The notes under the pieces: generated by a model
Seen by the model: the letters and a program-made list of their open reading frames with translations, nothing else
Database searches by the model: none
What the model was told of the DNA's origin: nothing
Made by a program: the position numbers and the translations under genes
In this document: one piece after another, positions 1,584-6,888 of the stretch
How the letters are laid out: each line of letters begins with the position of its first letter
Position numbering within the stretch: the stretch's first letter is position 1
Virus record (IMG/VR): IMGVR_UViG_2713896780_000027
Reading direction: 5' to 3' (one strand)
Origin: a virus
Taxonomy: Duplodnaviria; Heunggongvirae; Uroviricota; Caudoviricetes
DNA length: 12,085 nucleotides

Positions 1584-1790
1584 TGAGAAATCCTCTGCTT
1601 CCCCTTAACGCCGGGTAGCGGAACTGTTTGCTGAGAACACCGTGCGGTGTCTTGATGAGTAGAATTTAGAATAGCCTAAGAGTTATGGTTAAGCTTTTTG
1701 TGTAGAAAAACCTAAGCTTCTTGATGTAAAAAACACAAGTATTTGAAAGTTTGTGCTTTTTATTACAGAGAGTTGCGAAAAAAAGGGGGG

Positions 1791-2198
1791 TTATTTATTT
1801 GCGCTTCTTTTGCGAGCTTTGAGTAGTTCTTCAAAAAGTTTGTTGAAATTCTCAACTCGAGCACGCATCTCTGACAACAGAGCCTTTTGCTCTGACTCAG
1901 GCAGTGCGTCGAACAGTTGAAGCAACTCTTTTTGATCTTCTGTCAGATTGACTGGCTGATTATCTGGGATCGGTTCGCCTGGTTGCTTATCTTCATCTCC
2001 AAAAAGAAGCCAAGTCGGCGAGCACTGAAGCGCCTGGCTCAGTGCGAATAATCTCTTCCCCGCTGGCTGTGTTTCATCTCTTTCCCATTGAGAAATTGTT
2101 ACGTGAGCCACTTTGACCAGCTTACCTAATGCGGCCTGAGACAGTTTTAATTTTTTTCGCCTGTATAAGAGGCGAGCACCGAAGGTTTCGTTTTTCAT
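1791..2198 (-). CDS. dicA: DicA-like CI-type prophage repressor (HTH XRE family), 135 aa
   Basis: Translation carries an N-terminal HTH (LSQAALGKLVKVAHVTISQWER) and the motifs LFALSQALQCSPTWLLFGDEDKQP and NFNKLFEELLKARKR. These match my recollection of E. coli Qin DicA closely, and the length is the same. It is divergent from a Cro-like gene. Confidence 0.75.
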   Translation of the reverse strand: MKNETFGARLLYRRKKLKLSQAALGKLVKVAHVTISQWERDETQPAGKRLFALSQALQCSPTWLLFGDEDKQPGEPIPDNQPVNLTEDQKELLQLFDALPESEQKALLSEMRARVENFNKLFEELLKARKRSANK

Positions 2199-2274
2199 AT
2201 TAGGTAATTCTAATTTTTCTTGACTTAGGTTTCTCTACGATCTAGTTTCCTTAGGAAAATCTAAGGGGTTCGAT
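2199..2274. promoter_or_regulatory. divergent repressor/cro intergenic control region with operator-like inverted repeats
   Basis: 76-bp gap between divergent dicA-like and dicC-like starts. Contains -35-like TTGACT (2220-2225), the inverted repeat CCTTAG-N6-CTAAGG (about 2249-2266) and a further CTTAGG at 2223-2228. Confidence 0.5.
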
Positions 2275-2502
2275 ATGTTGAAAATTGATGCTATAGCGTT
2301 TTTTGGCAGCAAAACAAAGCTTGCCAATGTCGCAGGAGTTAGGCTGGCAAGCGTTGCTGCATGGGGGGAACTGGTTCCTGAAGGTCGCGCGATGCGCCTG
2401 CAAGAGGCATCCGGCGGGGAACTTCAGTACGACCCCAAAGTTTATGACGAATATCGTAAGGCAAAGCGGGCGGGGCGGTTGAACAATGAAAATCACCACT
2501 GA
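2275..2502 (+). CDS. dicC: Cro-like regulator of the DicC/YdaS family, 75 aa
   Basis: ATG at 2275 with AAGGGG upstream. Divergent from the dicA-like gene. Product resembles DicC/YdaS-type Cro proteins (FFGSKTKLANVAGV...GRAMRLQEASGGELQYDP). Confidence 0.6.
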   Translation: MLKIDAIAFFGSKTKLANVAGVRLASVAAWGELVPEGRAMRLQEASGGELQYDPKVYDEYRKAKRAGRLNNENHH

Positions 2503-3037
2503 ACAGGTTTGTGAGGCTCTGGATACCTGGGTATGCCGACCAGGAATGACACAGGAGCAGGCGACGATATTAATCACGGAAGCATTCTGGGCTCTGAAAG
2601 AACGCCCGAACATCGATGTTCAACGCGTCACGTTTAATGATGGCGAGGTTGATCAACGGGCGCTGGGCGTTAACCGGGTGAAGATATTCGAACGCTGGAA
2701 AGCTATCGACACCAGAGATAAGCGTGACAAATTCACGGCGCTGATTCCGGCAATTATGGAGGCTATCCGGATCAGCGATTTCAGATTGTATTGTGAAATT
2801 ACTGACGGAAAAAGCATTACGTACATGATCGCCGGGTTAAACAAAGAATATGGCGATGTGGTGGAGTCCGGGCTGCTTTTTGCGGATCCAGTTGTTGTGG
2901 AACGTGAGACTGACGAGCTTATAGAAAAAGCTATTGCTTTCAAGCACGCGTATCGTCAGCAATACCAATATTACTTTGCAGATAAACAAATGTCTGCCAG
3001 GGGTTCGTATGAGTATCGATGCACTACGATGGGCTAA
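2486..3037 (+). CDS. YdaT-like protein (CII-like regulator/toxin-domain family), 183 aa
   Basis: ATG at 2486 overlaps the end of the cro-like gene by 17 bp. Position and N-terminal sequence are consistent with the YdaT proteins that follow YdaS/Cro in Rac and CP-933P-type prophages. The C-terminal 29 bp overlap the O-like start. Confidence 0.55.
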   Translation: MKITTEQVCEALDTWVCRPGMTQEQATILITEAFWALKERPNIDVQRVTFNDGEVDQRALGVNRVKIFERWKAIDTRDKRDKFTALIPAIMEAIRISDFRLYCEITDGKSITYMIAGLNKEYGDVVESGLLFADPVVVERETDELIEKAIAFKHAYRQQYQYYFADKQMSARGSYEYRCTTMG

Positions 3038-4049
3038 AAAGGTGAAAACCGGCAGTTCATCCAGTAAGTCAGTATTGACCTGGCTTGCTGATATGTGCGG
3101 TGCCGATTTGTGTGCATACCCGTCTGTATCTGCACTGGCAGAAGTAACGGAACTGAACAAAAAGACTGTGCAGGACAGCTTACGACACCTGATGGAGATT
3201 GGGTTAATTGTTGATACCGGTGAGAGAAAAGGCAGAACAAAGCAAATTGTGGTGTACCGACTTATCGGTGTAGAAGAAAGTGTTGCCGAGCCTGAATACA
3301 CCCAAAAACGGGAGTCTTTAAAGGTGGGTAAAATTGGTGCTGTTAATAAAAACAGTACCGAAAATGGTTATGTTTCAGCACAAAACAGACCCAAAAACAG
3401 AACTCTTAGCTGCATGGAAAATAACCAAAGACACCCAAATTTTCCATCAAAGACACCCAAAAACGGATCACGGAACCCAAAGGAACCCAAAGATCTAAAC
3501 CCCACACATAACGCACGCGAGAGTGCTCCGACCAGTGAGCAGGAAGTTTTGTCGTTACAGGCAGCCCCCCCTGTATTCCTGTATGGCCTGAGCGAACCCA
3601 TCGGAAAATTCCCGATGAGCGATAGCTGGTATCCGTCACGGGATTTTCGACGACGGGCTGCGTTGTGGGGGATGGCTTTGCCGGAGACAGAATTTACACC
3701 TGCTGAACTTGCCGCCTTCCGGGACTACTGGGCAGCGGAGGGGAAAGTGTTTACGCAGATTCAGTGGGAGCAGAAATTCGCCCGTCACGTAAATCACGTC
3801 AGGGCGCAGGTTAAACCAGTCAGCAAAGGGGTAAACCATGCAGCAGCACCAGGTGGCACCGCATCACGGGCAGTTCAGGAAATTCGGGCAGCACGTGAGC
3901 AGTGGGAACGTGAAAACGGATTTATCAGCGACGGAAACGGCCTGGAAGCTGTGGGAACTCATGGGGGAGGTTTATTCGAACCGCTGGACCCAGAAGAACG
4001 GGGCCGCACCATCGAAGCTCTGGATTGCACAGATTGGCGCGATGACTGA
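3009..4049 (+). CDS. replication initiator, lambda O-like (N-terminal HTH, low-complexity linker, C-terminal DnaT-like domain)
   Basis: ATG at 3009 (MSIDALRWAKK...) with AGGGG upstream; the longer ORF from 2934 was rejected. N-terminal winged-helix region, P/K/N-rich linker encoded by the iteron repeats, and a DnaT-like C-terminal region (FTPAELAAFRDYWAAEG...). The last 212 bp overlap the P-like gene out of frame. Confidence 0.65.
   Translation: MSIDALRWAKKVKTGSSSSKSVLTWLADMCGADLCAYPSVSALAEVTELNKKTVQDSLRHLMEIGLIVDTGERKGRTKQIVVYRLIGVEESVAEPEYTQKRESLKVGKIGAVNKNSTENGYVSAQNRPKNRTLSCMENNQRHPNFPSKTPKNGSRNPKEPKDLNPTHNARESAPTSEQEVLSLQAAPPVFLYGLSEPIGKFPMSDSWYPSRDFRRRAALWGMALPETEFTPAELAAFRDYWAAEGKVFTQIQWEQKFARHVNHVRAQVKPVSKGVNHAAAPGGTASRAVQEIRAAREQWERENGFISDGNGLEAVGTHGGGLFEPLDPEERGRTIEALDCTDWRDD
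3386..3495. repeat. iteron-like direct repeats (candidate phage origin) inside the O-like gene
   Basis: At least five copies of an (A/G)ACCCAAA core within about 110 bp (AGACCCAAAAACAG, AGACACCCAAATTTT, AGACACCCAAAAACGG, GGAACCCAAAGG, GAACCCAAAGATC). They lie in the linker-coding part of the initiator gene, as in the lambda ori. Confidence 0.5.
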
Positions 4050-4503
4050 GCAGCAAATCCGGCAGGTCTGCCGCCAGTGCATGGACCGCTGCCGGGCGGG
4101 TGAAACATGGCCTCCGGACCTGGCTGAGTTTGTGGCACTGATTTCGAAAAGCGGAGCCAATCCATTCGGTCTGACGGTGGATGCTGTGATGGAGGAGTAC
4201 CGCCGCTGGCGCAATGAGTCCTGGCGATACGACGGAAGTGATAAGTACCCGTGGTCTCAGCCTGTGCTGTATCACATTTGCCTCGAGATGCGTTCAAAGG
4301 GGATTGAGCGCCAGATGACCGAAGGGGAATTAAAACGGCTTGCAGAACGGCAACTGACGAAATGGGCAAAGCATGTTAGTAACGGCCTGAGCGTTCCGCC
4401 AGTCCGGCGACAACTGGCGGCCCCCAAACGCCCGTCGGGGCCAACGCCAATTGAGTTGCTGAAACAGGAATATGAACGCCGGAAAGCGGCTGGTTTTGTT
4501 TGA
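3838..4503 (+). CDS. replication protein P-like helicase loader (lambda P family)
   Basis: C-terminal half resembles lambda P as I recall it (YPWSQPVLYHICLEMR... against YPWKSNAHYWLVTNLY...). ATG at 3838 has AAAGGGG 6 nt upstream. Alternative starts are GTG 3910, ATG 3961 and ATG 4042. Confidence 0.65.
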   Translation: MQQHQVAPHHGQFRKFGQHVSSGNVKTDLSATETAWKLWELMGEVYSNRWTQKNGAAPSKLWIAQIGAMTEQQIRQVCRQCMDRCRAGETWPPDLAEFVALISKSGANPFGLTVDAVMEEYRRWRNESWRYDGSDKYPWSQPVLYHICLEMRSKGIERQMTEGELKRLAERQLTKWAKHVSNGLSVPPVRRQLAAPKRPSGPTPIELLKQEYERRKAAGFV

Positions 4504-4536
4504 GTTGAGAAGTGATTTTTTACCGGGAGGAAATTT

Positions 4537-5271
4537 ATGGAGACTGTTTTTGACGCACTGAAAGCGATGGGAAAAGCCACGTCGGTAGAGCTGGCTGCGC
4601 GACTTGATATCAGTCGTGAAGAAGTACTGAACGAGCTGTGGGAACTGAAAAAGGCTGGCTTCGTTGATAAAAGCGTATACACCTGGCGTGTGGCTGATAA
4701 CAACGTTCAGCAGGAACAGCCAGCGCCAGAAGAAACCACCACGGCAACAGAAGCGAAAATCTCAGAGTGCGATTTAACCGCGACGATTGAACAACGCGGA
4801 CCACAAACGGCGGATGAACTGGCTACGCTGTTCGGTACAACATCCCGCAAAGTTGCTTCAACGCTGGCAATGGCAATCAGCAAAGGTCGTCTGATTCGCG
4901 TAAACCAGAACGGTAAAATTCGTTACTGCATACCAGGTGATAATTTACCAGCAGAGCCGAAAGTTGAATCGGTAGCGGAAACCGATGGTAAAGCCTTTCC
5001 TCAGCCAGCCGGTGTTGCGTTACCGGTACAGAAAGATGCAACACAGGAAGATATTAAAACAGAAACTGTGGCGGACATTGTGCAGTCGCTGCCATCGTTT
5101 ACTGCAACGCGAGAAGATGATTTGATTTTGCCATCGCTGCATATGGCAAATCGCGAACTGCGTAGGGCGAAGAATCATGTCCAGAAGTGGGAGCGAGTCT
5201 GCGCCGCGCTGCGGGAGCTGAACAAGCACCGGGATATGGTTGCCGGGATTTGTCGGAAGTCCGGGCAATGA
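4537..5271 (+). CDS. conserved prophage protein, DUF1627-like, 244 aa
   Basis: ATG at 4537 with a strong GGGAGG Shine-Dalgarno. N-terminal winged-helix-like segment followed by an acidic/Thr-rich linker. Sits immediately after O/P, as in many lambdoid prophages. Family assignment is from memory only. Confidence 0.5.
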
Positions 5272-5712: not shown

Positions 5713-5937
5713 CGCGAGTGCGTGTAACTTTGATGTCATTCCCGTAGAAACACCGGACAAATTTTCGCTGACAGGTCATGCAGAAGGTATAAATCTGCAG
5801 ATTATGGACAATTACGGATATCCGGCAAGAGCCGGAAAAAGCATGCCGCCTCTAATTCTCAGTGGAAGATGGACTTGATTATACTCATTGCATTGTCAGA
5901 AATAGTTATCCATTAAAGGCTGGCTATTCCAAACAGG

Positions 5938-5965
5938 ATGTTGATTACAAAAATGTAATCAACAT
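5938..5965. promoter_or_regulatory. perfect 12-bp inverted repeat with 4-bp spacer upstream of the moron gene
   Basis: ATGTTGATTACA-AAAA-TGTAATCAACAT, perfect dyad symmetry. Lies in an AT-rich region about 25 bp upstream of a TATAAT hexamer (5992-5997) and about 165 bp upstream of the 6130 start codon. Confidence 0.4.
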
Positions 5966-6129
5966 GTAAGGTTTATACTCTTCAATATGCGTATAATTTT
6001 CCTTATTTTGTTGACTTTAAATAACAAGCTATGCACGAGGTAAAGTCGGATAAGTTTATCTGGATGTAATATATATTATTTGTAGTGTTTATAACTTTAT
6101 TTCATGATAACCAATAAAAGGAGTTTTTT

Positions 6130-6888
6130 ATGAGGAACATAATGGCAGGTTTTTTAATATTCCTGTCTTCTGCTGCTTATGCTGATATCAATCTGTATGG
6201 TCCTGGTGGCCCGCATACAGCCTTGCTTGATGCAGCCAAACTTTATGCCGAAAAAACAGGTATTATAGTGAACGTTCATTACGGCCCACAGAACAAATGG
6301 AATGAAGATGCCAAAAAAAATGCAGATATCTTGTTTGGCGCATCAGAACAATCTGCTCTGGCTATCATTCGGGACCATAAAGACAGCTTCAGTGAAAAAG
6401 ATATTCAGCCTCTTTATCTGCGAAAAAGTATTTTACTGGTAAAGAAAGGTAATCCTAAAAATATCCGGAGTATTGACGACCTGACCAGACCTGGGATTGG
6501 CGTAATTGTTAATGATGGTGGTGGTACCAGTAATACATCAGGCACTGGCGTCTGGGAAGATATTGCCGGACGTAAAGGGAATATAGAAACTGTCGCCGCA
6601 ATCCGAAAAAATATTATTTTATATGCGCCCAATAGCGGAACTGCACGTAAGGCTCTTGAGAATCAGCCTGGAGCAGATGTCTGGATAACCTGGGCTGACT
6701 GGGCAGCCAGTAATCCAGAAATTGGTGATGTCGTGGAAATAGCGCCAGACTACGTGATATGGCGTGATATGAACATTACAGTACGTCAGGATGCAAATGA
6801 TGAAACCCGTCGATTTGCAGAATGGCTACAAACCGATGAAGCGGCGCCTGCATTCAAAAAATATGGCTGGACCAGGAAAGGCACTTGA
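6130..6888 (+). CDS. secreted periplasmic solute-binding protein, ModA/AcfC-like (type II PBP fold), 252 aa
   Basis: GGAG 6 nt upstream of ATG 6130. Sec-type signal peptide (MRNIMAGFLIFLSSAAYA, AXA cleavage motif). Mature sequence resembles molybdate/sulfate-binding proteins and the AcfC family, including the C-terminal AFKKYGW motif. GC is well below the flanking phage genes. Confidence 0.65.
   Translation: MRNIMAGFLIFLSSAAYADINLYGPGGPHTALLDAAKLYAEKTGIIVNVHYGPQNKWNEDAKKNADILFGASEQSALAIIRDHKDSFSEKDIQPLYLRKSILLVKKGNPKNIRSIDDLTRPGIGVIVNDGGGTSNTSGTGVWEDIAGRKGNIETVAAIRKNIILYAPNSGTARKALENQPGADVWITWADWAASNPEIGDVVEIAPDYVIWRDMNITVRQDANDETRRFAEWLQTDEAAPAFKKYGWTRKGT

Follow-up and report, generated by a model that had tools for sequence, protein, structure and literature searches.

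Where does the prophage carried on this DNA begin its replication? The stretch analysed here, referred to as the window, comprises 12,085 nt of IMG/VR record IMGVR_UViG_2713896780_000027. It is the early-right region of a lambdoid prophage, and ompW-site prophage records are identical to it; positions 2486–4503 are 100% identical by megablast to 11 deposited 'PPompW' + Stx2a-phage records from Shiga-toxin-producing Escherichia coli. The window encodes a 346-residue replication initiator with a winged-helix N-terminal domain (N-domain), a low-complexity linker and a DnaT-like C-terminal domain (C-domain). An initial annotation, made from the sequence alone, proposed that iterons in the linker-coding DNA mark a lambda-style origin. 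Comparative evidence supports this proposal: an array of repeats at 3298–3491 is probably the cis-acting core of the prophage replication origin, placed inside the initiator gene as in lambda. The comparative support for this assignment is considerably stronger than what is visible from the letters of the window. The assignment would locate the likely origin for a kind of prophage found widely among Shiga-toxin-producing E. coli, the records joined to an Stx2a phage among them, and it defines a short DNA core for mutation or origin assays.

A repeat array inside the initiator gene

The initiator gene, its array and the gene that follows have these parts:

3009–4049, + strand: initiator gene, 346 residues (winged-helix N-domain, low-complexity linker, DnaT-like C-domain)
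3009–3278, + strand: part coding for the N-terminal winged helix, residues 1–90, the presumed iteron reader
3298–3315, + strand: iteron 1, ACACCCAAAAACGGGAGT; core in frame (ACC CAA AAA CGG = TQKR); best fit to the family consensus
3354–3371, + strand: iteron 2, degenerate, AGTACCGAAAATGGTTAT (STENG); two mismatches relative to CCCGAAAACGG
3387–3404, + strand: iteron 3, AGACCCAAAAACAGAACT; frame CCC AAA AAC = PKN
3431–3448, + strand: iteron 4, variant, ACACCCAAATTTTCCATC; frame CAC CCA AAT = HPN
3453–3470, + strand: iteron 5, ACACCCAAAAACGGATCA (TPKNGS); exact core, invariant in 46 E. coli alleles
3472–3491, + strand: two tandem half-sites GGAACCCAAA, in two different frames (NPK and EPK)
3489–3496, no strand: mosaic joint with Rac-type ydaU (megablast and pairwise alignment)
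3588–3818, + strand: DnaT-like C-terminal coding part, residues 194–270, the presumed partner of the P-like loader
4042–4503, + strand: lambda-P-like helicase-loader gene (Pfam Phage_lambda_P PF06992, E 4e-16; phrog_109 'P-like helicase loader', E 2e-54)

The heptamer ACCCAAA occurs six times, always on the + strand (3300, 3389, 3433, 3455, 3475 and 3485), and nowhere else in the 12,085 bp. Six copies per 200 bp exceeds anything in 300 dinucleotide shuffles, where four was the most that a 7-mer on either strand attained, and a 7-mer cluster scan of the window found no second repeat cluster. The initial annotation had named (A/G)ACCCAAA as the core and counted at least five copies within 3380–3510. 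Only three exact copies of that octamer are present (3388, 3474 and 3484), and taken alone they are insignificant (1.16 expected; 26 of 200 shuffles reach three), whereas the shared core ACCCAAA has six. Five of these do lie within 3380–3510; the sixth, at 3300, is upstream, so that the array spans about 3298–3491 and begins 80 bp before the interval given at first. Nor are the copies tandem, as had been described: they are dispersed, at spacings of 89, 44, 22, 20 and 10 bp, and Tandem Repeats Finder detects only GGAACCCAAA ×2.1 at 3472–3492, with a period of 10 and a 100% match.

The fuller unit measures about 18 bp, ACA-CCCAAAAACGG-G.., and is present in five copies alongside the two tandem 10-bp half-sites. 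Allowing one mismatch, CCCAAAAACGG is found three times, at 3301, 3456 and, with the mismatch, 3390, where 0.33 copies were expected; degenerate or variant cores stand at 3357 (ACCGAAAATGG) and 3434 (CCCAAATTTTCC), and successive spacings that count the degenerate copies are irregular, from 10 to 56 bp. Most copies in the window are only weakly dyad-symmetric (partial dyad CCC...GG(G)). Iteron 1 reads ACACCC-N6-GGGAGT, and several E. coli alleles have GGGTGT instead, which gives perfect 6-bp inverted arms. Many E. coli alleles carry ACCGAAAACGG or ACCAAAAACGG at the position of iteron 2, and at 3398–3400, in iteron 3, the window has CAG where the commonest E. coli allele and most alleles have the consensus CGG. 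The iteron 4 variant, CCCAAATTT(T)GG(G), recurs in the phages Bcep176, LZ35 and GF-2 as a near-perfect palindrome. A looser motif, ACCCAAAAAC with two mismatches, was discarded: its 14 occurrences match the 13.95 expected by chance, and the signal resides only in the clustered exact core.

The array lies in linker-coding DNA, as the initial annotation had it (the translation reads ...NRPKNRT...KTPKNGSRNPKEPK...), and it is conserved as DNA, not as peptide. The six ACCCAAA copies fall in codon phases 0, 2, 1, 2, 1 and 2 and are translated TQKR, PKN, HPN, PKNG, NPK and EPK. Permuting synonymous codons within the gene while holding the protein fixed yielded a mean of 0.89 copies and a maximum of four in 5000 trials, and resampling codons from the usage of the window yielded a mean of 0.46, compared with the six observed (P < 2e-4). 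The proline codon CCC is used three times in the linker, compared with 3 of 75 proline codons in the other open reading frames. Conservation is assigned to the DNA because three frames are used, because reshuffling gives less than one copy and because CCC is enriched in the linker. Since the DNA around the sites codes for nothing but a flexible linker, selection acts on the DNA sequence, and the peptide (PKNG / TQKR / PKT..) is a by-product, with any frame tolerated. Mere codon repetition, a doubt raised along with the initial proposal, is contradicted by these data and by spacings of 17 and 22 bp in relatives. A DNA element that dictates an apparently low-complexity peptide in three frames is also a warning for the annotation of protein repeats and disorder. 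Programmed −1 frameshifting on CCCAAAA was considered and rejected, the copies lying in different frames with no conserved alternative open reading frame.

Constraint is also visible within E. coli. We compared 46 distinct alleles drawn from 80 viral-contig loci, all of them near-identical E. coli prophages. The least polymorphic 70-bp stretch of the gene starts at 3418 (nucleotide diversity, pi, of 0.003 vs 0.023 for the whole gene); this stretch, 3418–3487, takes in both iteron 4 and iteron 5, together with a large part of the two half-sites.

The array and the N-terminal domain across the family

By profile comparison, the initiator is assigned to the HTH_36-type phage initiators (phrog_1032). 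The whole protein matches phrog_1032, 'replication initiation protein', at E 9e-91 and the N-domain alone matches it at E 1e-37. A HMMER search with the N-domain retrieved 2274 clusters (50% identity level) at E ≤ 1e-3, 476 of them at E ≤ 1e-10, and a sample of 126 proteins of at least 180 residues was taken from the best 150 clusters. HTH_36 itself scores below the Pfam cut-off in the window protein (20.9 vs 25 bits), and 123 of the 126 relatives pass at E ≤ 1e-4. The wing DTGERxGxT is conserved, with D69, T70, G71, E72, G75 and T77 invariant, and a structure model of the N-domain has winged-helix topology. At the other end of the protein, Pfam DnaT (PF17948) matches residues 201–267 at E 9e-17, and the DnaT C-domain structures in the Protein Data Bank (6aep/4ou6) match at E ~1e-19.

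Several kinds of evidence link the array to this N-domain. First, homologous initiator genes carry the repeats in the same place, with the core CCC[A/G]AAAACGG present 2–12 times in five annotated phages and in nearly all of 22 further loci, a conservation on which the initial proposal had been made to depend. The five phages, Edwardsiella EPP-1, E. coli phiV10, Vibrio H20, Acinetobacter LZ35 and Burkholderia Bcep176, have N-domain homologues with 33–58% identity, and each carries the core two to seven times directly after the part coding for the N-domain, some copies being in other frames. The 22 loci come from different species (Acinetobacter, Proteus, Providencia, Phaseolibacter, Superficieibacter, Pseudoalteromonas, Oxalobacter, a Beijerinckiaceae genome and others) and were located by a genome scan with a profile built from a three-sequence alignment. 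Nearly all have 2–12 copies, on the + strand only, and the rest of each 3.3-kb locus holds zero to three loose matches to the core. The consensus of 68 copies is GAATRnA-CCCAAAAACGG-GA, and spacings in relatives include 17, 22 and 24 bp. Acinetobacter prophages and Bcep176 have a variant, (G)GAAACAGTCCCAA(C/A)AA.., spaced 17 and 22 bp, so that copies rotate through the frames; these arrays include near-perfect palindromes such as GTCCCAACGTTGGGAC and GTCCCAAATTTGGGAC, which point to a dimeric binder of double-stranded DNA. In three of these arrays (L089 and L092 from Acinetobacter and L006 from Bcep176, at ~1800–1930), 17 and 22 bp alternate, six successive copies rotate through three frames and the final copy is often a perfect 16-bp palindrome. 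Helical phasing was dropped as a family rule, spacings of 17–18 bp being common.

Second, the array leaves a peptide footprint across the family. The 126 representatives contain 217 core footprints: 80 P[KE]NG in frame 0, 62 xQKR in frame 1 and 75 PKTx in frame 2. All of them fall within residues 81–230 and none elsewhere in these proteins; 98 of the 126 proteins have at least one footprint, and 41 have footprints in at least two frames.

Third, the array accompanies the N-domain through every domain swap seen, whatever C-domain follows. Among the 126 relatives, the C-terminus is DnaT in nine and Phg_2220_C in six, and the combination of N-domain and array is joined to many C-termini, some of them unknown. 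In the window itself, similarity to Rac-type ydaU runs from the joint at 3489 through the C-domain and the P-like gene to 4503 (query 1004–2018, 92.8%), and the joint lies immediately after the last repeat. The Rac YdaU/YdaV pair thus shares with the window the C-terminal half of the initiator and the P-like gene, at ~93% DNA identity. Unlike the window protein, Rac YdaU begins with a DUF1376 domain and its linker lacks a repeat array, so the Rac origin determinant must differ; the oriJ papers do not give the position of the oriJ origin. The sequence AGATCT, with a Dam site (GATC) inside, stands at 3491–3496, at the mosaic joint and with the last repeat immediately before it, and in EPP-1 and Vibrio H20 AAAGATCT likewise comes after the array. 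The adjacent AAGATAAAAGATC of EPP-1 is one mismatch from the reverse complement of what we take to be the oriC 13-mer consensus.

Finally, a natural chimera connects the family with lambda. Edwardsiella phage GF-2 (L111, 1429–2271) combines an N-domain of the window family and a CCCAAAA-type array with a lambda-O-like C-domain, 62% identical to residues 156–299 of lambda O, followed by a P gene. Its array consists of one copy of CCCAAAAACGG and three of ATCCCAAAATTGGGAT, with 24-bp spacing. When the two DNAs are aligned, the iterons of GF-2 (ATCCCAAAATTGGGAT) coincide with those of lambda (ATCCCTCAAATTGGGGGAT), and similarity resumes just past the lambda AT-rich region. It follows that N-domain and iterons have been exchanged as one unit ahead of the lambda O C-domain, as would be expected if initiator domain and origin sites form a cognate pair. 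Together with shared repeat arms, the chimera ties this initiator family to the classical lambda origin and suggests that the lambda origin is one branch of a much larger family of origin modules.

The lambda-like arrangement proposed in the initial annotation holds: the array lies between the parts coding for the N- and C-domains, the P-like gene (PF06992) is next and the genes stand in a cro/cII-type operon. In lambda, four iterons in gene O, of a type with dyad symmetry and a length of about 19 bp, are bound by O dimers and, as in the window, lie in the linker-coding part between a DNA-binding N-domain and a loader-binding C-domain, with a P-type loader gene next and in a cro/cII early operon (PMC5043065; PMC7466680). 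The suggested comparison with the lambda origin is likewise borne out: the four annotated iterons occupy the equivalent place in O at similar spacing (20, 24 and 23 bp), and these distances, not being multiples of three, put them in different frames. The Stx phages 933W and P27 have six-iteron origins of the same intragenic kind. Lambda and window iterons alike consist of a C-rich arm, an A-tract and a G-rich arm, and the copies of phiV10 and GF-2 share the ATCCC...GGGAT arms and central A-tract of lambda (lambda form ATCCCTC-AAAAC-GAGGGAT). In both systems, N-domain and iterons are exchanged together as one module. The arms are three bp further apart in lambda (CCC-N9-GGG) than in the window (CCC-N6-GG). 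Unlike in lambda, the window C-domain is DnaT-like, its copies are irregularly spaced and no 40-bp AT-rich block lies downstream. The N-domain is tied to lambda O only through shared PHROG profiles, phrog_678, phrog_345 and phrog_270, which both N-domains match in the same profile region, and through published HHpred results, which assign HTH_36 to the lambda O N-terminus (PMC5509034). The label 'O-like' used at first therefore fits the organization, which works like that of O, and does not fit the family, the protein being outside Pfam Phage_rep_O with a DnaT-like C-domain. We regard the initiator as a distant relative that would act in the manner of O while standing outside the lambda O family.

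Two other systems bear comparison. DopC/DopE, a domesticated O-like/P-like chromosomal pair of Cellvibrionales and Oceanospirillales (Brezellec et al. 2017, PMC5509034), shares with the window an HTH_36 N-domain, a DnaT C-terminal motif and a lambda-P-family gene immediately after. These are resident chromosomal genes that, according to their authors, have no iteron-like sequences (PMC5509034), whereas the window pair lies in a prophage (100% identity to ompW-site records) and carries the array. The theta-plasmid iterons (P1, F, RK2, R6K, pSC101) are, like those of the window, several same-orientation sites of 17–22 bp for a winged-helix initiator (PMC5043065), and the right-hand spacings of the window (44, 22, 20 and 10 bp) are near multiples of the helical turn. 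Unlike the window sites, which are intragenic, plasmid iterons lie outside the rep gene, beside DnaA boxes and an AT-rich region, and the 17–18-bp spacings in relatives of the window are out of helical phase. The window has no perfect DnaA box (TTWTNCACA), and boxes with one mismatch are not enriched (30 vs 23 expected).

The arrangement is thus of the textbook lambda type and known in kind; what the comparison adds is a family-wide core, a three-frame footprint and natural chimeras that tie the array to ori-lambda. In the library searched, looking for iterons alongside DnaT, PF13730 or prophage initiators turned up no work on this initiator family and no paper describing its conserved core or origin, and the motif appeared in no relevant context in any paper found. 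The same core in the same place in more than 2000 initiator clusters would make an experiment on one member transferable to many phages and prophages, and origins in the family could be predicted from linker sequence alone. A bolder and rather doubtful extension, which we offer tentatively, is that a large mosaic initiator superfamily of more than 2000 clusters shares one origin 'code' (core CCCAAAAACGG, arms related to lambda ATCCC...GGGAT), with specificity residing only in short clade-specific 5′ flanks. Such a code may extend beyond the lambdoid prophages of enteric bacteria to elements of Vibrio, Acinetobacter, Burkholderia and Alphaproteobacteria. If it exists, unrelated prophages sharing a host could have initiators that titrate or cross-activate one another's origins, and the linker signature (PKNG / xQKR / PKTx) would be a sequence-only origin predictor for thousands of prophages.

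Mechanism and alternative explanations

If the array is the origin core, the initiator would, by homology, be a product of the early operon adjoining cro. On the analogy of lambda (PMC5043065), its winged-helix N-domain would bind ~18-bp sites composed of the core CCCAAAAACGG (C-rich arm, A-tract, G-rich arm) and clade-specific 5′ flanks, and several bound copies would form a nucleoprotein complex that wraps or bends the A-tract-rich DNA. The DnaT-like C-domain would then recruit the lambda-P-like loader carrying the host DnaB helicase, again by homology, and melting and the start of replication would take place in or beside the array, possibly aided by transcription across the gene, as in lambda (PMC5043065). 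That the N-domain is the binding protein, that the array fires and that this copy is active are steps that we infer.

Several observations weigh against this reading. Most directly, the AT-rich unwinding element that the initial annotation expected immediately downstream is absent from the window by both GC and stability profiles: no easily melted block follows the array, GC is 0.50–0.58 at 3500–3600 and stability there is above the window average. By nearest-neighbour stability, the weakest nearby DNA is at 3318–3357, inside the array (z ~ +1.9); in lambda, this calculation puts z at +2.9 immediately past iteron 4. In only 4 of 12 relatives does the least stable 40-mer lie 1–16 bp downstream of the last iteron. 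The window array is also more degenerate than those of relatives, with three good cores vs 5–12 in EPP-1 and L088, and a comparison of the E. coli alleles shows no significant deficit of variation at core positions relative to the remainder of the linker (Fisher p = 0.35). The initiator gene is frameshifted in some prophages, so the window copy may be a relic. On the protein side, the structure model of the N-domain has only moderate confidence (predicted local distance difference test score, pLDDT, of 69); the window initiator has no match to Pfam Phage_rep_O (PF04492) at E ≤ 0.01, where lambda O itself scores 5.7e-36; BLASTP of the N-domain against lambda O returned nothing; and hhalign against the single lambda O sequence was weak (E 0.0098, probability 4%). 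On these last three results we rejected filing the initiator in the lambda O family. The literature searched yielded no experiment on this family.

The copies might instead be genuine protein-binding sites that are not an origin, serving autoregulation or titration of the initiator or bound by another phage or host protein, with the origin elsewhere. The lack of an adjacent AT-rich unwinding element in the window would suit such a role, as would the use of iterons for copy-number control in iteron plasmids (PMC5043065), and the present data do not directly identify the binding protein. We nevertheless regard this explanation as unlikely, since the array stays with the initiator N-domain in all domain swaps seen and, in GF-2, occupies the exact place of the lambda iterons, which are a mapped origin. 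The 12-kb window offers no other repeat cluster and no DnaA boxes, and domesticated DopC, of the same architecture and reportedly without iterons (PMC5509034), fits a replicon-specific role in cis.

It is equally improbable that the array is a genuine origin that has decayed in a cryptic ompW-site prophage, its sites being relics unable to fire. The initiator and P-like open reading frames are intact in the window and 100% identical in 11 deposited phage records, and across 46 alleles no other DNA in the gene is as conserved as the right half of the array. Pointing towards decay are the good core kept in only three of ~7 copies, CAG at 3398–3400 in place of the CGG of most alleles, a frameshifted exonuclease gene in related records, an IS110-family transposase after Q and truncation of 6 of 52 distinct initiator alleles. 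Decay concerns the activity of the array, not its identity, and is compatible with the origin assignment.

The array readily acquires indels. A third copy of GGAACCCAAA is present in one E. coli prophage (L012), by insertion at window position 3471, and another (L047) has an extra C in iteron 1, by insertion at 3303; the initiator is truncated in both. Several Klebsiella homologues end inside the linker after a frame switch (proteins P0004, P0006 and P0008 are among the indel cases).

Could the repeats be functionless as DNA, a by-product of a PKNG-like peptide repeat or of slippage in a low-complexity linker? The region does encode a linker rich in proline, lysine and asparagine, and the 10-bp tandem unit differs in copy number among alleles, evidence that slippage does happen. 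The core is, however, read in all frames in the window and about equally per frame in the 126 family members, spacings of 17, 22 and 25 bp are not divisible by three, and reshuffling with a fixed peptide gives less than one copy rather than six; moreover, the core is identical across phages of different proteobacterial classes whose encoded peptides differ. The frame data exclude a peptide-level repeat, and the explanation as a whole is very improbable.

That the motif acts in mRNA, as A-rich protein-binding sites or as structure controlling translation of the initiator and the coupled P-like gene, is hardly credible: every copy is on the coding strand and RNA 3290–3500 folds better than shuffles (−47.6 kcal/mol, z = −3.6), but DNA iterons, too, as a rule share one orientation, the predicted fold leaves the cores largely unpaired, no Rfam family matches, and several relatives have near-perfect DNA palindromes (GTCCCAACGTTGGGAC, ATCCCAAAATTGGGAT) typical of sites for dimeric DNA-binding proteins. 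In the fold of RNA 3290–3500, the main hairpin, ~3334–3361, overlaps the degenerate iteron 2, and inverted repeats lie at 3365–3377 and 3415–3427; this fold could act in mRNA or as a DNA cruciform.

Neighbouring genes and other observations

The genes around the initiator and its loader are arranged as follows:

1791–3037: upstream control region (repressor, Cro-like and YdaT/cII-position genes)
1791–2198, − strand: repressor gene (Pfam HTH_3; annotation of the identical phage record)
2275–2502, + strand: Cro-like gene (Pfam P22_Cro; annotation of the identical phage record)
2486–3037, + strand: YdaT/cII-position gene (Pfam YdaT_toxin; annotation of the identical phage record)
directly after the loader gene: DUF1627 gene
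further right, in this order: solute-binding-type moron, DUF968, RusA, antiterminator Q
9413–10108: Q antiterminator gene

With the repressor, Cro-like and YdaT/cII-position genes at 1791–3037, the initiator sits in a pR-type operon. A promoter and terminator scan of 1600–4700 gave nothing exceeding chance. The loader gene has an in-frame ATG at 4042 and overlaps the stop codon of the initiator gene by 8 bp, an overlap found identically in the Rac-SA53 annotation. Deposited records place the start of the P-like gene at the ATG at 4081 instead; the longer form, starting at 4042, is probably correct, and its overlap implies translational coupling.

Two tRNA genes (10304–10376 and 10470–10543) lie downstream of the Q gene and are directly followed by an IS110-family transposase gene (10658–11854, − strand), where late genes and stx loci usually begin. 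The most AT-rich and least stable DNA of the window (z up to +3.75) is at 5878–6160, ahead of the open reading frame 6130–6888. The product of this frame has a bacterial solute-binding fold (SBP_bac_11), and its counterpart in LC567822.1 is annotated as Paa/AdfO adherence factor; the gene resembles a moron equipped with a promoter region of its own. Positions 1690–1734, shortly beyond the downstream end of the repressor gene (− strand), carry two tandem copies of a 23-bp unit, TAAGCTTCTTGTGTAGAAAAACC.

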